A stretch of DNA of 64,000 bases from Candidatus Dormiibacterota bacterium (GCA_963757475.1 CAVWRW010000008.1:65529-129528); one strand, 5' to 3'; shown: positions 1 through 8,201, counted from the first letter of the stretch. Notes: generated by a model from the sequence alone, not told the origin. Translations and numbers: made by a program.

Positions 1-2
1 CG

Positions 3-344
3 CAAGAGCGGATCGAACGGATCCCAGGTGGCTTCCTGCGGAGCCTGGCCGTAGAGCAGGTGGAGCGTCTTGCGCTTGCCTTGAAGGCGAGCGAGGTGAC
101 CATCCTCCACGTCGAGGCCGGTATTGCAGAAGCGCGAGCGCGGATGCGGCCGGAGGACAGCGCTGCGAAGCCGGCAGCGCCGGGGGTATGCCCGGTGCAC
201 CACGGCGCGGTGGAAGACGCCGAGGGCATACCCACCAAGCCGCATGTGCTCAACGAGGTGACGGCACCCGTCGTCGACTCGCTGGGACGACGTCAAGTTG
301 CCAACGGCGAGCTTGTGCACGCCGGTGACGGCAGCCTTCCCTAG
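3..344 (+). CDS. Partial (5' truncated) protein with a C-terminal PCP_red-like helical domain, possibly the tail of a universal-stress or radical-SAM-associated protein
   Basis: Frame is open from the window edge: QERIERIPGGFLRSLAVEQVERLALALKASEVTILHV resembles the PCP reductase-like repeat (xRleriPxFlRxxAxxxvExxA). It also contains GVCPVHHG and stops 2 nt before the next start. Confidence 0.5.
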   Translation, partial: QERIERIPGGFLRSLAVEQVERLALALKASEVTILHVEAGIAEARARMRPEDSAAKPAAPGVCPVHHGAVEDAEGIPTKPHVLNEVTAPVVDSLGRRQVANGELVHAGDGSLP

Positions 345-346
345 CG

Positions 347-1624
347 GTGAGCGGCGGCATGCCTGTCGACCGGATGCTTGCGCTCCAGGTAACGCCGCCC
401 CAATTTCCATGGCTGGGTAACAGCCTTCCCGTCGGCATCGTCTTTCTCCTCCACGTCGCGGTCGCCGAGTTCTCTGTCGGCGCGATCACGCTGGCGGTGA
501 TCATGGAGTGGCGAGCGCTTGCAACCGGGGACGTCCGGCCGTGGCGCTACGCACACTCTGCGGTCAACAGCTTCTATTTCGTCTTCAGCATCGGCGCGAC
601 GCTTGCGGTCTTCGCGGTGGTGCTGCTGTTCGGCCTCTGGGGAAACGCCTTCGGTCAGCTGGCGAACGTCCTCCTGCCGCTGCTCGCGCTTGCCTTCGGA
701 CTGTTCTTTCTGATCGCGCCGTTGCTGACCGTGTATCGAAATAGCTGGCAGCGATTCAGCCCGCGAACCCACGCCATCCTCGGAACCGTCGTGGCCGGGC
801 TCATGACGCTCTTCGTCTTCCTCATCGTCGGCCTCGACGCGTACCTCATCACGCCGTTCAACGGCGGTCTCTGGGATGCGACGCTCAACGCCGCCTACTG
901 GCCGTTGCTCGTGCATGGACTCATCGGCAACGTGTCGTGGACGGCCCTTTTCCTTGCGGCATACGCGGCCGTCCGGTTGCGTCGCACGGCGGACCCCGGC
1001 GAGCGTGCGTTTCAAGGCTGGGCCGCGCATCTCAACCTGCGTATCGGCCTCGGCCTCGCGTTGCTGATGCCGATCGAGGGGCTGATCCTCAGTTATGTGC
1101 TCCAGAACGCGCAGCCGGGATTCTTCACGAACCTGGTCAGCGGCAACTCGGCATGGCTGATGGTGGTGCAGGAAGTGTTCGTCGGCGTCATTCTCGTCGG
1201 GGGGAATATCGCGCTGTGGCTCGAGAGCCCAGTGAACGAGCGTCGCAACCGCTTCGCCGCGGCGGCAACGCTGGTTTCGCTGGCAGGCATGGTCGTCGCC
1301 TCCCTGCCTGACTCGGTGCTGCCGCCCGCGTGGGAGGACGCGCGTTTCATCGGCATCGGTGTTGGGATCGTCGCAACGGCCTTGCATCTCTGGCGGCGCT
1401 GGCGTCCTCCAGTGTGGGAGCCAACTGCGAGTGCGAAGTCGCAGCCGCGTCCCTCGCGAATGCTGCGTCCCGTGCTCGTCCTGGTCGGATCATTTGCACT
1501 CCTCACGTCGCTGCTGATGGGCGTCATCAAGGAGAGCGCCCGTGGCGACTACGCCGTGTACGGCGTGCTGACACAAGCACAGGCGCACGAGCGCTTCACG
1601 CCGCGAGCAGAGCTCTACCCGTGA
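347..1624 (+). CDS. Cytochrome bd ubiquinol oxidase subunit I-like protein (CydA'-type, non-canonical)
   Basis: About 9 TM helices. FLLHVAVAEF (His19-equivalent), LVHGLIGN (His186-equivalent) and the C-terminal GVIKESARGDYAVYGVL (like the CydA ExGRQPWxVYG motif). No long Q-loop. Confidence 0.7.
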   Translation: MSGGMPVDRMLALQVTPPQFPWLGNSLPVGIVFLLHVAVAEFSVGAITLAVIMEWRALATGDVRPWRYAHSAVNSFYFVFSIGATLAVFAVVLLFGLWGNAFGQLANVLLPLLALAFGLFFLIAPLLTVYRNSWQRFSPRTHAILGTVVAGLMTLFVFLIVGLDAYLITPFNGGLWDATLNAAYWPLLVHGLIGNVSWTALFLAAYAAVRLRRTADPGERAFQGWAAHLNLRIGLGLALLMPIEGLILSYVLQNAQPGFFTNLVSGNSAWLMVVQEVFVGVILVGGNIALWLESPVNERRNRFAAAATLVSLAGMVVASLPDSVLPPAWEDARFIGIGVGIVATALHLWRRWRPPVWEPTASAKSQPRPSRMLRPVLVLVGSFALLTSLLMGVIKESARGDYAVYGVLTQAQAHERFTPRAELYP

Positions 1625-1637
1625 ATGGGGACCAGCG

Positions 1638-1886
1638 ATGATCAGTGACATTCGCGAGGCGCAGTTTCAGGCGGCCTGGTATTACTCGATCATCGCGCTG
1701 GCAATGCTGGTCATGCTGCTGACCGGTTTCGGGTGGGCATGGGCGGGCGCACGGCGAGTCTGGCGCGCGGGGGACCACGGCGCGGCCGCGTTGATCGTTG
1801 CCGCGACTTCCGTGGGCTTGCTCGTGCTGGTCGGACTTGGCGTGGCCGCGTTTGTCGGCCTGGTGGCAACAGGAGGACGGGGCTGA
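1638..1886 (+). CDS. Small two-TM membrane protein, probable accessory subunit
   Basis: 82 aa with two hydrophobic helices; its TGA overlaps the Rieske ATG (TGATG). Confidence 0.65.
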   Translation: MISDIREAQFQAAWYYSIIALAMLVMLLTGFGWAWAGARRVWRAGDHGAAALIVAATSVGLLVLVGLGVAAFVGLVATGGRG

Positions 1887-2386
1887 TGCGCAAGCACACG
1901 CGCCGTGAATTCATGGTGCTTGGAACGGGCGTGGGAATGGGGCTGATCGGGGCGATGCTGTCGATTCCCGCCATCGGCTTTGTCCTGAGCCCGCTGTTCG
2001 CGAAACGGCGCGTCGCCTGGGTCACCATCGGCGCGATCGACAGCATTCCCCTCAACACGCCGACAGTACGCCTGGCATCGATGCCAAGCGATCAGGGTTT
2101 CCCGACGCCGCCCTCGAACCGCGTCGTCTACATCGTCCGAAAGGACGACGGCAGCGTCCTCACCCTGAGCAACATCTGCACGCACATGCAGTGTGACGTG
2201 CACTGGGATGCGCAGATCAACCAGTTTCTCTGCCCGTGCCATGGCGGTCTTTACGACATGAATGGTGTGAACGTCGGTGGCCCGCCGCCGCAGCCGCTCG
2301 CGCAGTGGGTGCACCGGGTGAACGTCGATCCGATCACGGGGCAGCACATCCTCGAGGTGCAGAACCAGCTCAATGAGTCGATCTAG
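1886..2386 (+). CDS. qcrA: Rieske [2Fe-2S] subunit of a Rieske/cytochrome b complex
   Basis: Tat motif RKHTRREF plus TM anchor; CTHMQC...CPCHGGLY boxes; GPPPQPL. AGGAGG RBS upstream of ATG 1886. Confidence 0.93.
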   Translation: MRKHTRREFMVLGTGVGMGLIGAMLSIPAIGFVLSPLFAKRRVAWVTIGAIDSIPLNTPTVRLASMPSDQGFPTPPSNRVVYIVRKDDGSVLTLSNICTHMQCDVHWDAQINQFLCPCHGGLYDMNGVNVGGPPPQPLAQWVHRVNVDPITGQHILEVQNQLNESI

Positions 2387-3551
2387 TTCCACCACGCGTG
2401 CCCGCGCGGCCTATCGCTGGGTCGACGAACGTACCGGGCTGACCGAGCTGGTCCACAAGGGCCTGTATGAAGCGGTCCCAGAACGGGGCGGATGGGCATA
2501 CACGCTCGGCAGCGCCACGCTCGTGCTGATCCTCCTGCAGTTGTTCACGGGCATCTTCCTGCTCCTTGACTACGTGCCCTCCGTGACGCAGGCATGGTCG
2601 AGCCTCAACTACCTCCGCACCGACGATCCCTTCGGCGCGTGGGTGCGCGGCCTGCATCTCTGGGGTGCGTACACGCTGATTCTCGTCATCGGGTTGCATG
2701 CCTTACGCACCTTTCTGAGCGCGAGCTACAAGCGCCCCCGCGAATTGAACTGGATGAGCGGTGTCATCCTCTTCTTCCTCGTGCTGGGCCTCGCGGCGAC
2801 TGGGGCAATGCTCCCGTGGGACAACGCCGCGTACTGGACCGCGACGGTCATCACCAACATCCTCCACTACGTTCCCTTCATCGGTGACGGGTTGCGTCAA
2901 CTCTGGCGCGGGGGGTCCTTCGTTGGACCGATCACCCTCACCCGGACATTCGCAATCCACATCTGGGTGCTCCCATTTCTGCTCTTCACGTTCATCGGCG
3001 GCCATCTCTATCTGCTCCGTCGTCACGGAGAGTTCGGCGCGTGGGTCAACTACGACACGAGCACCGACAATCCCAGCAGGGAGGTGGCGGAACGTATCCG
3101 CTCGGCCGAACCACCATATCCGACAAAGCGAATCGAACGTCGCTACGCCGCGCCGAACAAGACAGTCGACTTCTTCCCGAACCAATTGTTCAAGGACACC
3201 CTTGTCAGTGCGGTGCTCATCCTGTTCATCTTCGTCATGGGTCTCGCGGGTGGAGCGCCCCTGGACGCGAGCGCCAACCCGGCGACCCTCACGTACGTGC
3301 CGACACCCGAGTGGTTCTATCTGCCGCTCGATCAGTTCCTGGTGCTGACACCACAGAACCCGTTGATCGCCATCGGCGTTCTCGTCATCGTCGGTGGGGG
3401 AGCGGCGGCCATGTTCCTGCTGCCGGTCCTGGACAGGTCGCCCGAGCGACGGCCGACCCGAAGACCCGAGATCCTTGTGCCGGCGATCTTCGTGATCTTC
3501 GCGGTGATCTTCCTCGCGACACTCGGCGTGAACCGCCTGTACAGCCTGTGA
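2373..3551 (+). CDS. qcrB: Cytochrome b (b6 and subunit IV-like domains fused)
   Basis: RGLHLWGA...HALRTF, YKRPRELNW, AMLPWD, TLTRTFAIHIWVLP...GHL (four heme His), and Qo motif PEWFYLP. Confidence 0.93.
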   Translation: MSRSSSTTRARAAYRWVDERTGLTELVHKGLYEAVPERGGWAYTLGSATLVLILLQLFTGIFLLLDYVPSVTQAWSSLNYLRTDDPFGAWVRGLHLWGAYTLILVIGLHALRTFLSASYKRPRELNWMSGVILFFLVLGLAATGAMLPWDNAAYWTATVITNILHYVPFIGDGLRQLWRGGSFVGPITLTRTFAIHIWVLPFLLFTFIGGHLYLLRRHGEFGAWVNYDTSTDNPSREVAERIRSAEPPYPTKRIERRYAAPNKTVDFFPNQLFKDTLVSAVLILFIFVMGLAGGAPLDASANPATLTYVPTPEWFYLPLDQFLVLTPQNPLIAIGVLVIVGGGAAAMFLLPVLDRSPERRPTRRPEILVPAIFVIFAVIFLATLGVNRLYSL

Positions 3552-3561
3552 GCGCCGAGCG

Positions 3562-4989
3562 ATGACGCTGCATCCGATCCCCGGCGACCTCCTCACCAAC
3601 GGCGTGCTCGTCGCCATCGTCGTGCTCCTGCACATCCAGATCGCCGCGTTCCTGATCGGCGCAACAACGCTCGCCATTGTCAGCGAGGCGATCGGTATGG
3701 CTCGCCGGAGCGGTGACGAGCGCCATGATCGCCTCGGTCACGGCCTCCTGAAGGCGGAGATCTACCTCTTCAGCACCGGGGCGGCCGTTGCCATCTTCTT
3801 CATGATCATCATCCTCGGCGCCATCTGGGGGCGGTTCTTCGTTGCCCTGCAACAGATCACGTTCTGGGTGTTCTTCGCGGAGGCACTCACGTTCGTTGCC
3901 GAGGTGGTGCTCATCTACGCGCTTTACGCGAACTGGGACCGGCTCCGAGTGCACCGGCCGGCGCGCCTCGGCATGTTGTTCATCCTCAACCTCGCGCAGT
4001 GGTGGCAGATGTTCTTCATCGATGCCGTCGCCTCGTTCATGCTCACGCCCAACGGGGGCGACGCGAACTTCCTTAACCAGATCCTCAATCCGACAGAGAT
4101 CCCGCTCACCATCCACCGCACGGTCGGCAACATCGCGTGGGCGGGTGCGGCGGTGGCGTTTGTCGCTGCATTCCGGTACTGGCGCCTGACGCGCAACGTC
4201 GAGCACGTGACGGGGTCACAACCCTCGCTCAAGCCGGCGCGATCGGTGGGGGCGCTGGCTGTCCAGGGTGTGGTTGCGGAACCCGTGGAGATGCGTGAGG
4301 CCCGGTACTGGGATTGGGTCGCGCAGTGGGGAGCGATGTGGGCGGTGGGCGTGACCTTGCTGCAGCCGTGGCTCGGCTACTCGTACGCAAAGGAGATCCA
4401 GCTCCACGACTACCCGGCATGGTTCAACATGATGTTCGGCGACCTCAGCAACGTATTCCTCGTGCAGATCACGCTGCTCGGTGCGATCTTCACGCTCGGC
4501 AGCGCCTATTTCTGGCGCCGCATGCGTGCTTCCGGCGCCACGCACTACCGCCGTCAGGGATTCCTTGCGTTGCTCCTGCTCCTGGTGACGATTTTCGCCG
4601 CGCAACCCGCCTGGTTCGCGTTCACGTATGCGGATGTCGTCTCAGCGCACCTTGCGAAACCGTTCTGGGACGGTGGATTGCTGAACCCGCTCGGGGACTT
4701 CATCCCCTACAAGGTGAGCGCGCTCATCGCGATGGTATTTCTTGGGCTCTGGTCGCTCACCATCTATCTGCGCTCTGTCAGCCGTGAGCAGATGCGTCCG
4801 GGGGTTATCGGCCGGCGCAGCCAGGCGTTGCTCCTCGGACTCGGTGTCGTGGTCAGCGTGATGATGATCGTCATGGGCGTCATCCGCGAGAACTCACGAC
4901 AGCCGTACCTCATCAGCGGCGAGTTGACGATCCACAACCAGCAGATCATCAACTCGCAGCCGAGCAATGTCGGGGGTTCGACGGGATGA
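3562..4989 (+). CDS. Cytochrome bd ubiquinol oxidase subunit I-like protein (putative catalytic CydA-like)
   Basis: VLLHIQIA (His19-equivalent), AEALTFVAE (paired proton-channel Glu), SFMLTP (as in CydA nsxMqtP), IHRTVGN (His186-equivalent) and GVIRENSRQPY (ExGRQPW-like). Confidence 0.78.
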   Translation: MTLHPIPGDLLTNGVLVAIVVLLHIQIAAFLIGATTLAIVSEAIGMARRSGDERHDRLGHGLLKAEIYLFSTGAAVAIFFMIIILGAIWGRFFVALQQITFWVFFAEALTFVAEVVLIYALYANWDRLRVHRPARLGMLFILNLAQWWQMFFIDAVASFMLTPNGGDANFLNQILNPTEIPLTIHRTVGNIAWAGAAVAFVAAFRYWRLTRNVEHVTGSQPSLKPARSVGALAVQGVVAEPVEMREARYWDWVAQWGAMWAVGVTLLQPWLGYSYAKEIQLHDYPAWFNMMFGDLSNVFLVQITLLGAIFTLGSAYFWRRMRASGATHYRRQGFLALLLLLVTIFAAQPAWFAFTYADVVSAHLAKPFWDGGLLNPLGDFIPYKVSALIAMVFLGLWSLTIYLRSVSREQMRPGVIGRRSQALLLGLGVVVSVMMIVMGVIRENSRQPYLISGELTIHNQQIINSQPSNVGGSTG

Positions 4990-5429
4990 TCGCCGCCGCG
5001 GGTCGGGAGCAGATGACACCGAAGCCTGGGCACGTCGCCGTCCGCCTCCGCCTCTTCGAGTCCGCCGGTGACGAACTCCGTGCCGTCGTCACGCCGCCGT
5101 GGCCGCAATGGGTCCAGCGTCTGTACGAGCTCGAGCAGCATCAGGATCCCGACATGGATGTTGATGCTGCAGCGATCACGCCCTCGGCAGCAGTGAGCGC
5201 ACTGAGCGAGCGTTTGAGGAATCGTCTCGTGCTCGTGAGCTGGACTCTCGGTGTGCTGCAGGAGCTGGGCTGGGAGATCTCCCAGGACGGTGATTCCCTG
5301 ATCGCCTCCTGCGAAACCACCCCGGACGCAGCACGGATATCGCTCGAGCGCGCCGGCGTTGCGGGTGCGATGTGCCGGATATGCGATATCGACGACGATG
5401 GCTGGCCTCTGTTGTCGTGGAACGGATGA
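4986..5429 (+). CDS. Hypothetical protein with a C-terminal CxxC
   Basis: ATGA overlap with both neighbours; typical codon usage; contains MCRICD. Confidence 0.6.
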   Translation: MIAAAGREQMTPKPGHVAVRLRLFESAGDELRAVVTPPWPQWVQRLYELEQHQDPDMDVDAAAITPSAAVSALSERLRNRLVLVSWTLGVLQELGWEISQDGDSLIASCETTPDAARISLERAGVAGAMCRICDIDDDGWPLLSWNG

Positions 5430-5815
5430 CGTCCGTGCAACACGTGTCGCATCTCGAATCACGACCCCGGGTCGTCGTGGCCACCGGCGAGCCGGCGATC
5501 GCGCGCATCCTCTCGCACAAGCTCGGTCGCGAAGGCTACGCCGTGAGCGTTGTCACGAACACGCAAGCGCTCGATGAGGTCCTCGCGGATGCCGACACCG
5601 ATGTCGCGCTGGTCGACCTGGTCCTGGTTGGTCCTGGTGCGGACCGCATCGGGGAGCGCGTCGCCGCCGGCTGGCTCGCAATCGTCGACAGCCGCCGACC
5701 ACAACTTGCCGAGCGCGCGATGCACGCCGGAGCGGCCGGACTGGTGCGAACGCCCTTCAAGCCGACCGAGGTCGCGGCGCAGGTTGCCACACTGCTCACG
5801 TTGGTGCCCCGATGA
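5426..5815 (+). CDS. Stand-alone response-regulator receiver-like protein (degenerate)
   Basis: RVVVATGEPAIARIL...GYAV...DVALVDL...AGAAGLVRTPFKP follows the CheY-like pattern, but the acidic pocket and conserved Lys are altered. Confidence 0.7.
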   Translation: MTSVQHVSHLESRPRVVVATGEPAIARILSHKLGREGYAVSVVTNTQALDEVLADADTDVALVDLVLVGPGADRIGERVAAGWLAIVDSRRPQLAERAMHAGAAGLVRTPFKPTEVAAQVATLLTLVPR

Positions 5816-6805
5816 TCAGCCACCAACGCCAAAAGGTACAGCCGTCTCGCGAAGTCCCATTCGAGCTGGCTCCGATGCTCGATGCGTCGGCTGTTGAGCA
5901 TCGATTCCGCAACGGGCGAGGCGTCGGACCGGTCGATCTGCGCGTGACGGCCGGGGAACGCACCGCGATCATGGGCGCCAACGGTGCCGGCAAGACCACG
6001 CTGCTGCGGATCCTGGCGACCGTGACCCGCCCTCGACATGGCACGGTCCAGTGGTGCGGCACCGCTGTTCCGCGCAGCGCCAGGCGGTTGATCGGATTCG
6101 CGGGAGATGCCACGCTCGACGACCCTGGGCTCACAGGCCGGCAGAGCACGTACTTCTGGTGCCGGCAGTGGACGCCGGGCCGCGACATCCACGGCGCGGT
6201 CGCGGAGACGTTGGGGCAACTCGGCCTTGCTGATGTCGCCGACGAGCCCATTGCCGGATATTCGTTCGGCATGCGTCGCCGCCTCGCGCTTGCGCAGGCA
6301 TTGGCCCACCAGCCTCGGATCGCGTTGCTCGACGAGCCGACCGCCGGGCTCGACGCCGAAGGGACGCAATCGTTGAGCTCCGAACTTGCGATGCGGACGC
6401 AGGCGGGCGACGTAACGCTCCTCGCGAGCAACGATTGCGCTTTCGTCGCATCCGCGTGCACGAGGGTCATCTTCCTGAACCACGGCCATGTCGTCGCAGA
6501 CGCCGCGCCGGAAGCGCTGCTTGCGTCGGTCGGCGATGCGCGCCGCGTCGAGATGACCATTGCCGAGAACACGAACGCGCGGATCGGTGAGCTGCAGACG
6601 ATCCCAGGGATAGGGAACGTCGCCTCAACCGCAGACGTTGTGACCGTCGACCTGGTGGACGACTTCCGCGCTTGCCGCCGTCGTCCGCACCGTCGACGCA
6701 TGGCCCGGAGGGCTGCGCGCACTCCGCATTCAACGTCCTGACCTCAGCGACGTCTTTCGGCAACTCACCGGTATCGCCCTCGACCACCAGGCGGCGCCAC
6801 GATGA
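5812..6805 (+). CDS. ABC transporter ATP-binding protein (frameshift near 6670)
   Basis: Walker A GANGAGKT, signature YSFGMRRR, Walker B LLDEPT. The C-terminus ...RPDLSDVFRQLTG continues in another frame to TGA 6805. Confidence 0.85.
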
Positions 6806-7551
6806 TGCAGACGACTGCTCGCGCACCGTTGGTCCGCCGGATGATGCCTGGCAGCCTGTTCGCACGCGAGCTACTCGTCACCGCGTCGCGGCCGCGAGCG
6901 CTTGCGTTGAAGGTCGCGATTCCACTCGTGCTCACGTTGCCCCTGCTCGCCGGACACGCACCGACCTTCTGGTCGGGGATGCTGTTCACGGTGCTCACGG
7001 CGATGACCGGCGCCGTGGGCGCGGCGATGAGCGTTGCCCGGGCTCGAGAGAGCGGGCTCCTGGCACGGCTCGCGATCACGCCACGGTCGCCGGGCGGAGC
7101 GATGCTGCGCTGGGTCGCCGCGTCATCGATCGTCGATGCCGTGCAGCTGACGCCCGTGTTGGTTGCCATCTTCGTGCTGGCGCCCGTGACCGCTCCGGCC
7201 GCACTCGCGCTCGTGCTGATCGAGCTTGCGGTACTTTTCGTTGCCAACGTGCTCGGCTCGGTGGTGGCCGCGGCCGGCGGTGGAGCAGGCGAGGTGCTCA
7301 TCGACGTGCTCGTGCTGCTTGCGCCGTTGATGTTCTTTGGTGGCCTCTTCACCGGCGTGCCACGGGACGGCTGGCGTTGGATCGCGGCGCAGGTCGATCC
7401 CTTTTCATACCTCGACTCCGCGTTCATCCGCGCACTCGGCGGCGTTGCCACCTTTGATGATCGAAGTGTGCTGGTGGCGGCGATCGTCACCACAGCGGCA
7501 GGGGTCGTGCTCATGCGCGGTCTGGGCCGCATCGTGTTGCGCCGGCGGTGA
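6802..7551 (+). CDS. ABC-2 type permease
   Basis: 6 TM; RESGLLARLAITP and FGGLFT...QVDPFSY motifs of ABC-2 permeases. Confidence 0.85.
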   Translation: MMQTTARAPLVRRMMPGSLFARELLVTASRPRALALKVAIPLVLTLPLLAGHAPTFWSGMLFTVLTAMTGAVGAAMSVARARESGLLARLAITPRSPGGAMLRWVAASSIVDAVQLTPVLVAIFVLAPVTAPAALALVLIELAVLFVANVLGSVVAAAGGGAGEVLIDVLVLLAPLMFFGGLFTGVPRDGWRWIAAQVDPFSYLDSAFIRALGGVATFDDRSVLVAAIVTTAAGVVLMRGLGRIVLRRR

Positions 7552-8201
7552 GCGCGCGCCGTACGACGTCCGTCCTCCTGCTGTGTGCCGCGATGCTGGC
7601 GGCATGTGCGGGACCGACTCCCATGGTGAGTTTGACCTCGCTCGGTCTTCCTCAGGGAGGCAAGCCACTGGCCGACGTCACCATCGATACGAGCCCTGAC
7701 GGCGGCATCTATCAGAACCCCGATCCGATGACGGTGGTCATGATCACTCGGGCTCCCGGTGGCGAGTTGATCAAACAAGGTGGAGCCGATGCGAGCGGCT
7801 GGGCCGCGTTGGAACGCTACGGCGACTTCACGTTTGTCGGGATCGCGGTTCGCAACAAGGGTGCCGCCGGGTCCGACCCGCAGCTGAATGCGATGCAGGT
7901 CGCCGCCGACTACGCGCCGGCGGGAACAGCATCTGGGCCGCTCAGCCATTTCTATCATCCGATGTTCCCGCTGGCGCTCCTGAGCCTTGAGCCGAGCGAT
8001 CGGAACTGCACGCTCCACGTTGATCCCGGGGAGTCGCAGCTGGCGGTGCTTGCGTACCCGCCGATCAGCGATACGTCGAGCATCGTGTGGGGCGTCTTCG
8101 ATGTCTTCGCGATTCGTGCCCCATTCGGCGGTGGTCTCCCGGGAGCGGCGCCGGACTGGCGACTGACGCTGTGCACGCCGCCTCAGCCGCCGCCGGCGTG
8201 A
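7548..8201 (+). CDS. Putative lipoprotein
   Basis: Basic N-terminus, hydrophobic stretch and lipobox LAA-C; GTGA overlap with the permease. Confidence 0.7.
   Translation: MSARRTTSVLLLCAAMLAACAGPTPMVSLTSLGLPQGGKPLADVTIDTSPDGGIYQNPDPMTVVMITRAPGGELIKQGGADASGWAALERYGDFTFVGIAVRNKGAAGSDPQLNAMQVAADYAPAGTASGPLSHFYHPMFPLALLSLEPSDRNCTLHVDPGESQLAVLAYPPISDTSSIVWGVFDVFAIRAPFGGGLPGAAPDWRLTLCTPPQPPPA

Follow-up and report, generated by a model that had tools for sequence, protein, structure and literature searches.

We analysed a window of 64,000 nucleotides (nt) from the genome of a Candidatus Dormiibacterota bacterium (GCA_963757475.1 CAVWRW010000008.1:65529-129528; G000:C8:65529-129528 in our own numbering; assembly of 2.54 Mb, 62% complete). 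Positions 347-4989 of this window hold five consecutive genes, which encode a CydA-like protein (A1), a small protein with two transmembrane (TM) spans, a Rieske protein, a cytochrome b and a second CydA-like protein (A2). We propose, with a probability of about 0.55, that this operon encodes a single quinol:O2 oxidoreductase, built from a Rieske/cytochrome b module and a CydA/CydA’ pair without Q-loop, and lacking a c-type heme.

The gene calls bear out the original prediction, made from the DNA alone, of five tightly spaced genes in this order; all five lie on the plus strand. From A1 to A2, the four junctions are a 13 nt spacer, a 1-nt overlap (TGATG), a 14-nt overlap and a 10 nt spacer. 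The tight coupling runs past both ends of the operon, with the stop of a rubredoxin-like/PCP_red gene 2 nt before A1, and a gene for a protein of 147 amino acids (aa), X_147, overlapping the A2 stop by 4 nt. The genes are listed in Table 1.

Table 1. The five operon genes and their neighbours, with positions in the window.
Feature	Position	Strand	Family match or other basis
A1, CydA paralog, ‘b’ type, 425 aa	347-1624	+	PF01654
Small 2-TM protein, 82 aa	1638-1886	+	two hydrophobic spans
Rieske [2Fe-2S] protein, twin-arginine translocation (Tat) signal/anchor	1886-2386	+	PF00355
Cytochrome b, b6-like and subunit-IV-like parts fused	2373-3551	+	PF00033 (E 2.3e-43), PF00032
A2, CydA paralog, ‘a’ type, 475 aa	3562-4989	+	paralogy to A1, fold model, conserved residues
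Rubredoxin-like (CxxC...CxxC) cytoplasmic protein, two PCP_red domains, 3’ part	1-344	+	PF21349, PF08369 on L004:14940-15872
X_147, soluble, no family match	4986-5429	+	start overlaps A2 stop (ATGA)
Receiver-domain-like protein, start uncertain	5372-5815	+	PF00072 (E 1.1e-4, 22.8 bits, below cut-off 30.2)
ATP-binding cassette (ABC) ATPase	5812-6741	+	PF00005
ABC-2 permease	6802-7551	+	PF01061

The CydA paralogs and the Rieske/cytochrome b pair

Relatives of A2 were collected by a scan at one genome per species, which returned 144 relatives, mostly from Candidatus Dormibacterota or Dormibacteria; 80 loci were kept. Residue conservation was taken from 33 sequences per family, with the A2 set spanning 40-100% identity.

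A1 matches the Pfam family Cyt_bd_oxida_I (PF01654) over its first 257 residues (E 2.1e-13), and PDB entry 5doq_A at E 0.012 with the histidine aligned. Comparison of the A1 family with the canonical CydA of a relative using hhalign (probability 91.5, E 8.5e-7) places H36 on the His19-type and H190 on the His186-type histidine (E. coli residue names). Both histidines are invariant (33/33). A1 lacks both channel glutamates, with Ala or Leu at the two places, and it lacks the Met ligand; a short loop replaces the Q-loop.

The A2 sequence has no match in Pfam or NCBIfam. It aligns with A1 over its full length (BLASTP, 27% identity, E 8e-17), and the two families match each other over 391 columns (hhalign probability 100, E 6.6e-48). 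On their own, 14 of the 33 members of the A2 family match PF01654. The AlphaFold model of A2, which has a mean predicted local distance difference test (pLDDT) of 76.7, contains ten long helices, and the ten best PDB matches found with it by Foldseek are all bd subunit I (E 6e-6 to 1e-4, template-modelling score about 0.5). The reading of the two flanking proteins as Q-loop-less members of the bd superfamily is thus upheld by Pfam matches, paralogy, fold and residues.

Thirteen residues of A2 are invariant in all 33 sequences: H24, E107, Y119, Y122, H185, K277, E278, Q280, L281, H282, M291, R442 and E443. Aligned with the canonical CydA of a relative (G001), H24 corresponds to the active-site histidine, E107 and E114 to the two channel glutamates, 7 residues apart, H185 and M291 to the His/Met pair of heme b558, and E443 to the glutamate of the E-x-x-R-Q-P motif. 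E114 is kept in 29/33. The QP motif that ends helix 6 is separated from the Met ligand by 23 residues in A2, compared with 87 in the canonical CydA of G001, and therefore the Q-loop is essentially gone. The reduced loop carries the invariant stretch K277-E278-x-Q-L-H282. A2 is likely the catalytic subunit.

Two known types of bd-superfamily enzyme were considered and rejected. The canonical quinol oxidase CydAB (qOR) does not fit a Q-loop cut to 23 residues with no CydB alongside, and the OR-C family does not fit the absence of CxxCH from all 71 A1 and all 78 A2 proteins. Sequence and operon traits of the OR-N family are found here: there is no quinol site and no heme c motif, the ‘a’ and ‘b’ paralogs lie in one operon, and the channel glutamates are present in ‘a’ only. 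The Atlas clusters closest to A2 come most often from Nitrospirota, a lead only and not a subfamily assignment.

The Rieske protein contains both cluster-binding boxes (CTHMQC and CPCHGG), including the disulfide cysteines, and a Tat motif, RREF. Residues R6, R7, C98, H100, C103, C116, C118 and H119, as well as the patterns C-x-H-x-x-C and C-P-C-H-G-G, are invariant (33/33). The NCBIfam models for b6f and bc1 Rieske proteins also match, both below cut-off. From textbook knowledge of these families, the glycine that follows C-P-C-H-G suggests a low-potential, menaquinol-type Rieske protein. Cytochrome b has the four heme histidines, H95, H109, H196 and H211, and a PEWF motif at the Qo site, in which P, W and F are kept in 33/33 and E in 32/33 sequences. 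With these boxes, histidines and PEWY-type motif, the pair falls within the bc1/b6f superfamily. Heme ci is absent, because cytochrome b has no cysteine.

The small 2-TM protein carries a conserved F-(Q/E)-x-x-W-Y motif. An open reading frame (ORF) of at least 60 aa with at least one TM span fills the gap between A1 and the Rieske gene in 63/68 loci, and its product is a candidate accessory subunit.

Predicted complex of cytochrome b, the Rieske protein and A2

We co-folded cytochrome b (residues 20-392) and the Rieske protein (1-166) with A2 (1-460) as the partner, using 33-row alignments in the same locus order. The complex score is 0.72 (0.72, 0.76 and 0.69 in the individual runs), against 0.00 for the best of three controls. 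The score mark that we applied is reached by 58 of 80 solved complexes and by 2 of 110 mismatched pairs, counts that serve as a rough guide because we used our own alignments and three chains. The runs share at least 91% of their contacts, and the pLDDT of the partner is at least 76.

In the predicted complex, the last helices of cytochrome b (321-392) contact A2 at residues 175-184, just before H185, at 266-284, where helix 6 ends and the K277...H282 loop lies, and at 381-408. The interface residues of the Rieske protein are I111, Q113, L115, G120, L122, G131 and G132, and they belong to the loops around the cluster ligands C116, C118 and H119 and to the G-G-P-P-P loop. The modelled contact supports binding of the cytochrome b/Rieske pair to A2. 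It had been suggested that the Rieske protein reduces the CydA hemes directly; the part of this that the prediction favours is that the loops around the Rieske cluster lie against A2, next to the histidine of heme b558, and the direct transfer itself is our inference. We are not aware of a solved structure in which a bc-type enzyme is joined to a bd-type one, and the fold matches of A2 include no such complex; it therefore seems unlikely that the score reflects a structure already known to the predictor.

Absence of heme c and CydB, gene order and genomic surroundings

None of the five genes encodes a CxxCH motif, as had been noticed from the DNA sequence. Apart from the Rieske protein, the operon products lack cysteine entirely, which makes a covalently bound heme impossible in A1, the small protein, cytochrome b and A2. 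Across the 80 loci, CxxCH occurs in 0 of 396 predicted operon proteins (71 A1, 45 small, 73 Rieske, 75 cytochrome b, 78 A2 and 54 X). The c-type acceptor subunit that is a hallmark of bc complexes (c1, f or a di-heme c) is thus missing from the operon. Inspection of the contig upstream, where a cytochrome c gene might have turned up, revealed none within 15 kb: over a stretch that begins 15.5 kb upstream and reaches 12.5 kb into the window, the sole CxxCH in a frame of at least 60 aa is antisense to a dehydrogenase gene.

The absence of a CydB-like gene nearby or upstream was likewise confirmed. CydB (PF02322) is found only next to a canonical CydA on another contig (G000:C3:97299-98268). In this genome, the canonical cydA and cydB (G000:C3:95902-98268; L001, L002) each give two neighbouring family matches that lie in different reading frames, which could reflect frameshifts or assembly errors; both genes are intact in G001 (L085).

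The arrangement, for which a synteny search had been proposed, is kept within the phylum and in metagenome contigs. The order A1, Rieske, cytochrome b, A2, all on one strand, is found in 66/66 loci with more than 3400 nt upstream. A2 is present in 20 of 301 sampled genomes of the phylum, a count that includes G000 and G177 (flagged unpublished); 17 of them belong to the same class and 3 to other classes, and the order is kept in 3/3 of the latter. A metagenome scan seeded with distant A1-type proteins yielded 18 loci, in which a Rieske gene follows the A1-type gene in 17; at the remaining locus the flank is 236 nt long. Wherever a metagenome locus extends far enough (11 of 11), cytochrome b and the second CydA paralog are found as well.

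The family is small, with 698 representatives at E ≤1e-3 and 63 at E ≤1e-30 among 1.84 billion. The organism labels of 20 distant representatives are few: Ktedonobacterales, Caldilineae, Chloroflexota and one Myxococcales. The Myxococcales label belongs to a distant A1-family member (L102 and the cluster of P0136), for which a mislabelled bin or a transfer is possible; every other relative with a name belongs to Chloroflexota or Dormibacterota. In G001, the closest complete relative, the match to the operon cytochrome b (L007, G001:C1:339486-340019) contains one in-frame TAG and yielded no intact ORF in the extraction, which could be a sequencing error or a broken gene.

Gene order and genome content also bear on whether the two modules are merely neighbours. 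Each of the five genomes checked (G000 and G001-G004) contains two COX1 genes, and in G001, G003 and G004 a second cytochrome b gene lies close to cytochrome c and COX1 genes; the full cluster in G001 comprises Rieske, cytochrome b6-like, subunit-IV-like, cytochrome c, COX1, CtaA and CtaB genes. Since relatives hold this separate Rieske/cytochrome b/cytochrome c/heme-copper oxidase cluster, the operon pair is an extra, dedicated copy. It is nevertheless conceivable that A1/A2 is a quinol oxidase with a regained quinol site and that the operon Rieske/cytochrome b pair serves the heme-copper oxidases. The two COX1 genes in every genome would suit such a division, as would K277-E278, which recalls the Lys/Glu of the canonical Q-loop, is invariant (33/33) and is replaced by E-E in cytochrome-c-linked relatives; archaeal CydAA’ is moreover described as a quinol oxidase (10.1101/2021.01.16.426971). 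We consider two separate enzymes improbable, however. The division leaves unexplained why Rieske/cytochrome b genes stay between two CydA genes, with overlapping stops and starts, in 66/66 loci and across classes, and why genomes with a canonical bc/cytochrome c/COX1 cluster still keep the second pair. The spacing of K and E also differs from the canonical K-x4-E in the CydA of a relative.

Upstream of A1 lie a tandem universal-stress-protein (USP) gene with a PCP_red domain and the rubredoxin-like gene with two PCP_red domains (L004:12988-15872); PCP_red is a domain known from protochlorophyllide reductase. The rubredoxin-like/PCP_red gene is found directly upstream of A1 in relatives with at least 50% A2 identity. 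Tandem-USP/PCP_red and small PCP_red proteins accompany Q-loop-less CydA genes in several classes, whatever the donor module (L004, L087, L088, L099-L103 and L109), and an ABC ATPase/permease pair travels with such genes in several lineages. After A2, in loci with enough downstream flank, X_147 is found in 46/67, the receiver-like gene in 45/67 and the ABC pair in 45/67; every locus with at least 50% A2 identity has these genes, whereas most loci of the 40% group lack them.

X_147 has no family in Pfam, NCBIfam or Atlas. It occupies the position held by a cytochrome c in distant relatives; a decayed copy of that operon-linked cytochrome c was considered and rejected, with E 1.5 or worse in BLASTP against the cytochrome c set. 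Further downstream, an ORF of 217 aa (window 7548-8201, plus strand) overlaps the stop of the ABC-2 permease by 4 nt and has a lipobox-like L-A-A-C but no family match. Promoter and terminator scans gave sites no more frequent than in shuffled sequences, and tRNA and Rfam scans of the window gave no match.

The USP and rubredoxin-like neighbours suggest use under low oxygen or dormancy. They also hint at stress or low-oxygen control, which would suit an assembly that is real, with a CydA-like pair that reduces another acceptor (NO, peroxide or a periplasmic compound) or is mainly protective and not energy-conserving. According to PMC10839748 and PMC12342949, no OR-N enzyme has been characterised, and E114 is not kept in distant relatives. 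Such a function is a long shot in our view, because the residues defining the O2-reducing di-heme site are all invariant, as is one channel glutamate, and the di-heme site is described by Murali et al. as the hallmark of O2 reduction in the superfamily (10.1101/2021.01.16.426971).

Proposed electron route and known systems

We hypothesize that the Rieske/cytochrome b pair oxidizes (mena)quinol at the Qo site and would run a Q-cycle, in which one electron would recycle through the two b hemes. The other electron would reach heme b558 of A2 by way of the Rieske cluster and then move to the di-heme O2 site, while protons would enter from the cytoplasm through E107. The tip of the Rieske cluster would sit against the periplasmic side of A2, adjacent to heme b558 (H185/M291); with the Q-loop missing, this heme would be exposed. 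A2 would catalyse the reaction and A1 would replace CydB. The scheme implies that A1 and A2 pair with each other and bind hemes, and that electrons may pass straight from the [2Fe-2S] cluster to heme b558. O2 is the presumed acceptor, although O2 and NO are not separable by sequence. The yield would be about 2 charges per electron, one from the Q-cycle and one from bd-type charge separation, compared with 1 for a canonical bd oxidase.

Several observations weigh against this scheme. The activity is putative, as it is read from genes and models. The A2 sequence alone has no match among PDB sequences, nor does the A2 family profile, and an alignment of 12 A2 sequences against one canonical CydA was not significant in hhalign (probability 0.52), with E114 and H185 on the expected residues. 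Because the profile and hhalign gave no direct match, the link between A2 and CydA depends on A1, the Pfam matches of relatives and the fold. The co-folding used one cytochrome b monomer, whereas bc complexes are dimers in which the Rieske protein crosses over. The contact residues of A2 are mildly more conserved than average (0.69 vs 0.59, permutation p 0.015), and those of cytochrome b are not (0.69 vs 0.73). Seven loci that are not of the Dormibacterial type show the order A1, Rieske, cytochrome b, A2, and in five of them the gene directly after A2 encodes a monoheme cytochrome c with a membrane anchor (present in L087, L089, L102, L104 and L109, absent from L088 and L106; confirmed by Pfam for L087 and L089 only), and so the ancestral electron path probably ran via cytochrome c. 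Finally, a cytochrome c maturation gene is kept in G000 and its close relatives, which leaves room for a carrier encoded elsewhere in these genomes.

In favour of the scheme, Q-loop-less CydA genes of other Chloroflexota share the USP/PCP_red neighbour, and often the ABC genes as well, but have a fused or adjacent cytochrome c in the electron-entry position. One locus (L100, 7626-10148) contains a tandem of CydA genes that both encode a cytochrome c domain at the C-terminal end (OR-C1a/b pattern), followed by USP/PCP_red and ABC genes; another (L098) contains cupredoxin, CydA and membrane cytochrome c genes, and a third (L101) CydA, USP and cytochrome c genes.

One alternative is that the two modules cooperate via a small carrier protein, either a cytochrome c or a cupredoxin with its gene elsewhere, so that the Rieske protein would not touch the oxidase hemes; OR-N enzymes in general are assumed to operate in this way. 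Besides the cytochrome c gene in the distant loci, the cupredoxin beside the related CydA of L098 would fit such a carrier, and so would PF01578, the family of the cytochrome c maturation proteins CcsA, CcmC and CcmF, which is present in G000, G001, G003 and G004. OR-N enzymes are also stated to be likely to use cytochrome c in Nitrospinota papers (PMC10839748).

The post-A2 cytochromes c share motifs among themselves, but no homolog was found in G000 or G001-G004, with G090 found as a control. At the 78 Dormibacterial loci, CxxCH lies within 3 kb in a frame of at least 70 aa in 10; judged by eye, none of these is directly after A2 and none has the post-A2 cytochrome motifs. PF01578 was found in 0/6 operon-bearing genomes of the 40%-identity group (G002 and G305-G309), and the cytochrome c family PF00034, which was found in G001, in none of the four tested (G002, G305, G306 and G307); cupredoxins were not searched genome-wide. 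With a chromosome of 2.49 Mb for G002 and a 2.39 Mb contig for G305, incompleteness is an unlikely reason for the absence of PF01578 from these two. The operon cytochrome b is the sole strong PF00033 match in G002; this genome has two COX1 genes despite no PF01578 being found. Together with the complex prediction, which sets the tip of the Rieske protein on A2, these searches make a separate carrier unlikely in our judgement.

In the loop between helices 6 and 7, Dormibacterial A2 has Y-A-K-E-I-Q-L-H where cytochrome-c-linked relatives have Y-(L/V)-E-E-I-R-A, and a 10-residue periplasmic insertion with W369-G-G-L is absent from these relatives. As evidence for a tie between these loops and the c-less state the changes are weak, coming from one clade and at most one evolutionary event. 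The c-less form appears to be a derived variant, since more distant relatives of the same cluster carry the dedicated monoheme cytochrome c. We speculate that the operon encodes a stable bc:bd supercomplex with direct transfer from the Rieske cluster to heme b558, which arose by loss of the monoheme cytochrome c and remodelling of the periplasmic loops of A2 (K277-E278-x-Q-L-H282 and the W369-G-G-L insertion); we hold this fuller proposal tentatively, at a little under even odds.

To our knowledge, the electron acceptor of every Rieske/cytochrome b complex studied is a c-type heme or, in some archaea, a copper protein, and every bd oxidase studied takes its electrons from quinol. If our proposal is correct, the Rieske cluster and heme b558 would form a type of junction new to respiratory chains, and it would place a Q-cycle ahead of a high-affinity oxidase free of copper and heme c, doubling the charge yield per electron. 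A low-yield, high-affinity oxidase would be coupled to a Q-cycle, the Q-loop-less bd families would gain a defined electron donor, and lineages without cytochrome c maturation would possibly have here their only Rieske/cytochrome b-dependent respiration. Dormibacterota are uncultured bacteria, known from nutrient-poor soils and linked to persistence on trace gases.

In actinobacterial bcc-aa3 and in Sulfolobus SoxM, a Rieske/cytochrome b module is hard-wired to a terminal oxidase and there is no diffusible carrier. Electrons pass through a di-heme cytochrome c in bcc-aa3 and through a blue copper protein in Sulfolobus, where no c-type cytochrome takes part. Both differ from the present operon in that the oxidase is a heme-copper enzyme, and in that the Rieske cluster does not deliver electrons straight to a b heme.

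Among bd-like enzymes, the pattern of ‘a’ and ‘b’ paralogs in Q-loop-less families has been described by Murali, Gennis and Hemp (10.1101/2021.01.16.426971). A1 and A2 share with the OR-N family, as described there, the loss of the Q-loop, the lack of a heme c motif, the ‘a’/‘b’ operon, the ten helices and a glutamate spacing of 7, as in Geobacillus. The main text of the OR-N preprint never mentions the term Rieske. Our literature search, which covered main texts, did not find the flanking gene order, the spread in Dormibacterota, the absence of a c-type heme or the predicted contact between the Rieske protein and A2; for a Rieske/cytochrome b pair enclosed by CydA paralogs it brought up only passages on Nitrospira and Manganitrophus.

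The kind of cluster is already known, since bd-like pairs with Complex III have been published for Nitrospirota. In Nitrospirales, OR-N5 genes are reported downstream of Alternative Complex III (PMC12342949). The region of Nitrospira moscoviensis that encodes CIII_1, bd-like_1, bd-like_2 and several cytochromes c is described as co-expressed and as a possible complex III-IV supercomplex (PMC6606698); it resembles our operon in having a Rieske/cytochrome b pair beside bd-like oxidases, and it differs in its several c-type cytochromes and NxrC-like protein, in bd-like_2, which is of the many-helix type, and in that no paralog pair flanks the bc genes. Candidatus Manganitrophus noduliformans has a cluster, TO_4, with two bd-like clade V proteins and a ‘more canonical Complex III’, and a sister cluster, TO_3, with Alternative Complex III instead (10.1101/2021.11.15.468770). 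By its published one-sentence description, TO_4 is similar to the present operon in that two bd-like paralogs cluster with Complex III and are read as one terminal oxidase complex; it belongs to another phylum, Nitrospirota. The cytochrome-c-linked form of other Chloroflexota classes and metagenome contigs (L087, L089, L102, L104 and L109) shares the order A1, Rieske, cytochrome b, A2 and, in some loci, the USP/PCP_red neighbours, and this natural pair of forms, with and without cytochrome c, offers a ready comparison.

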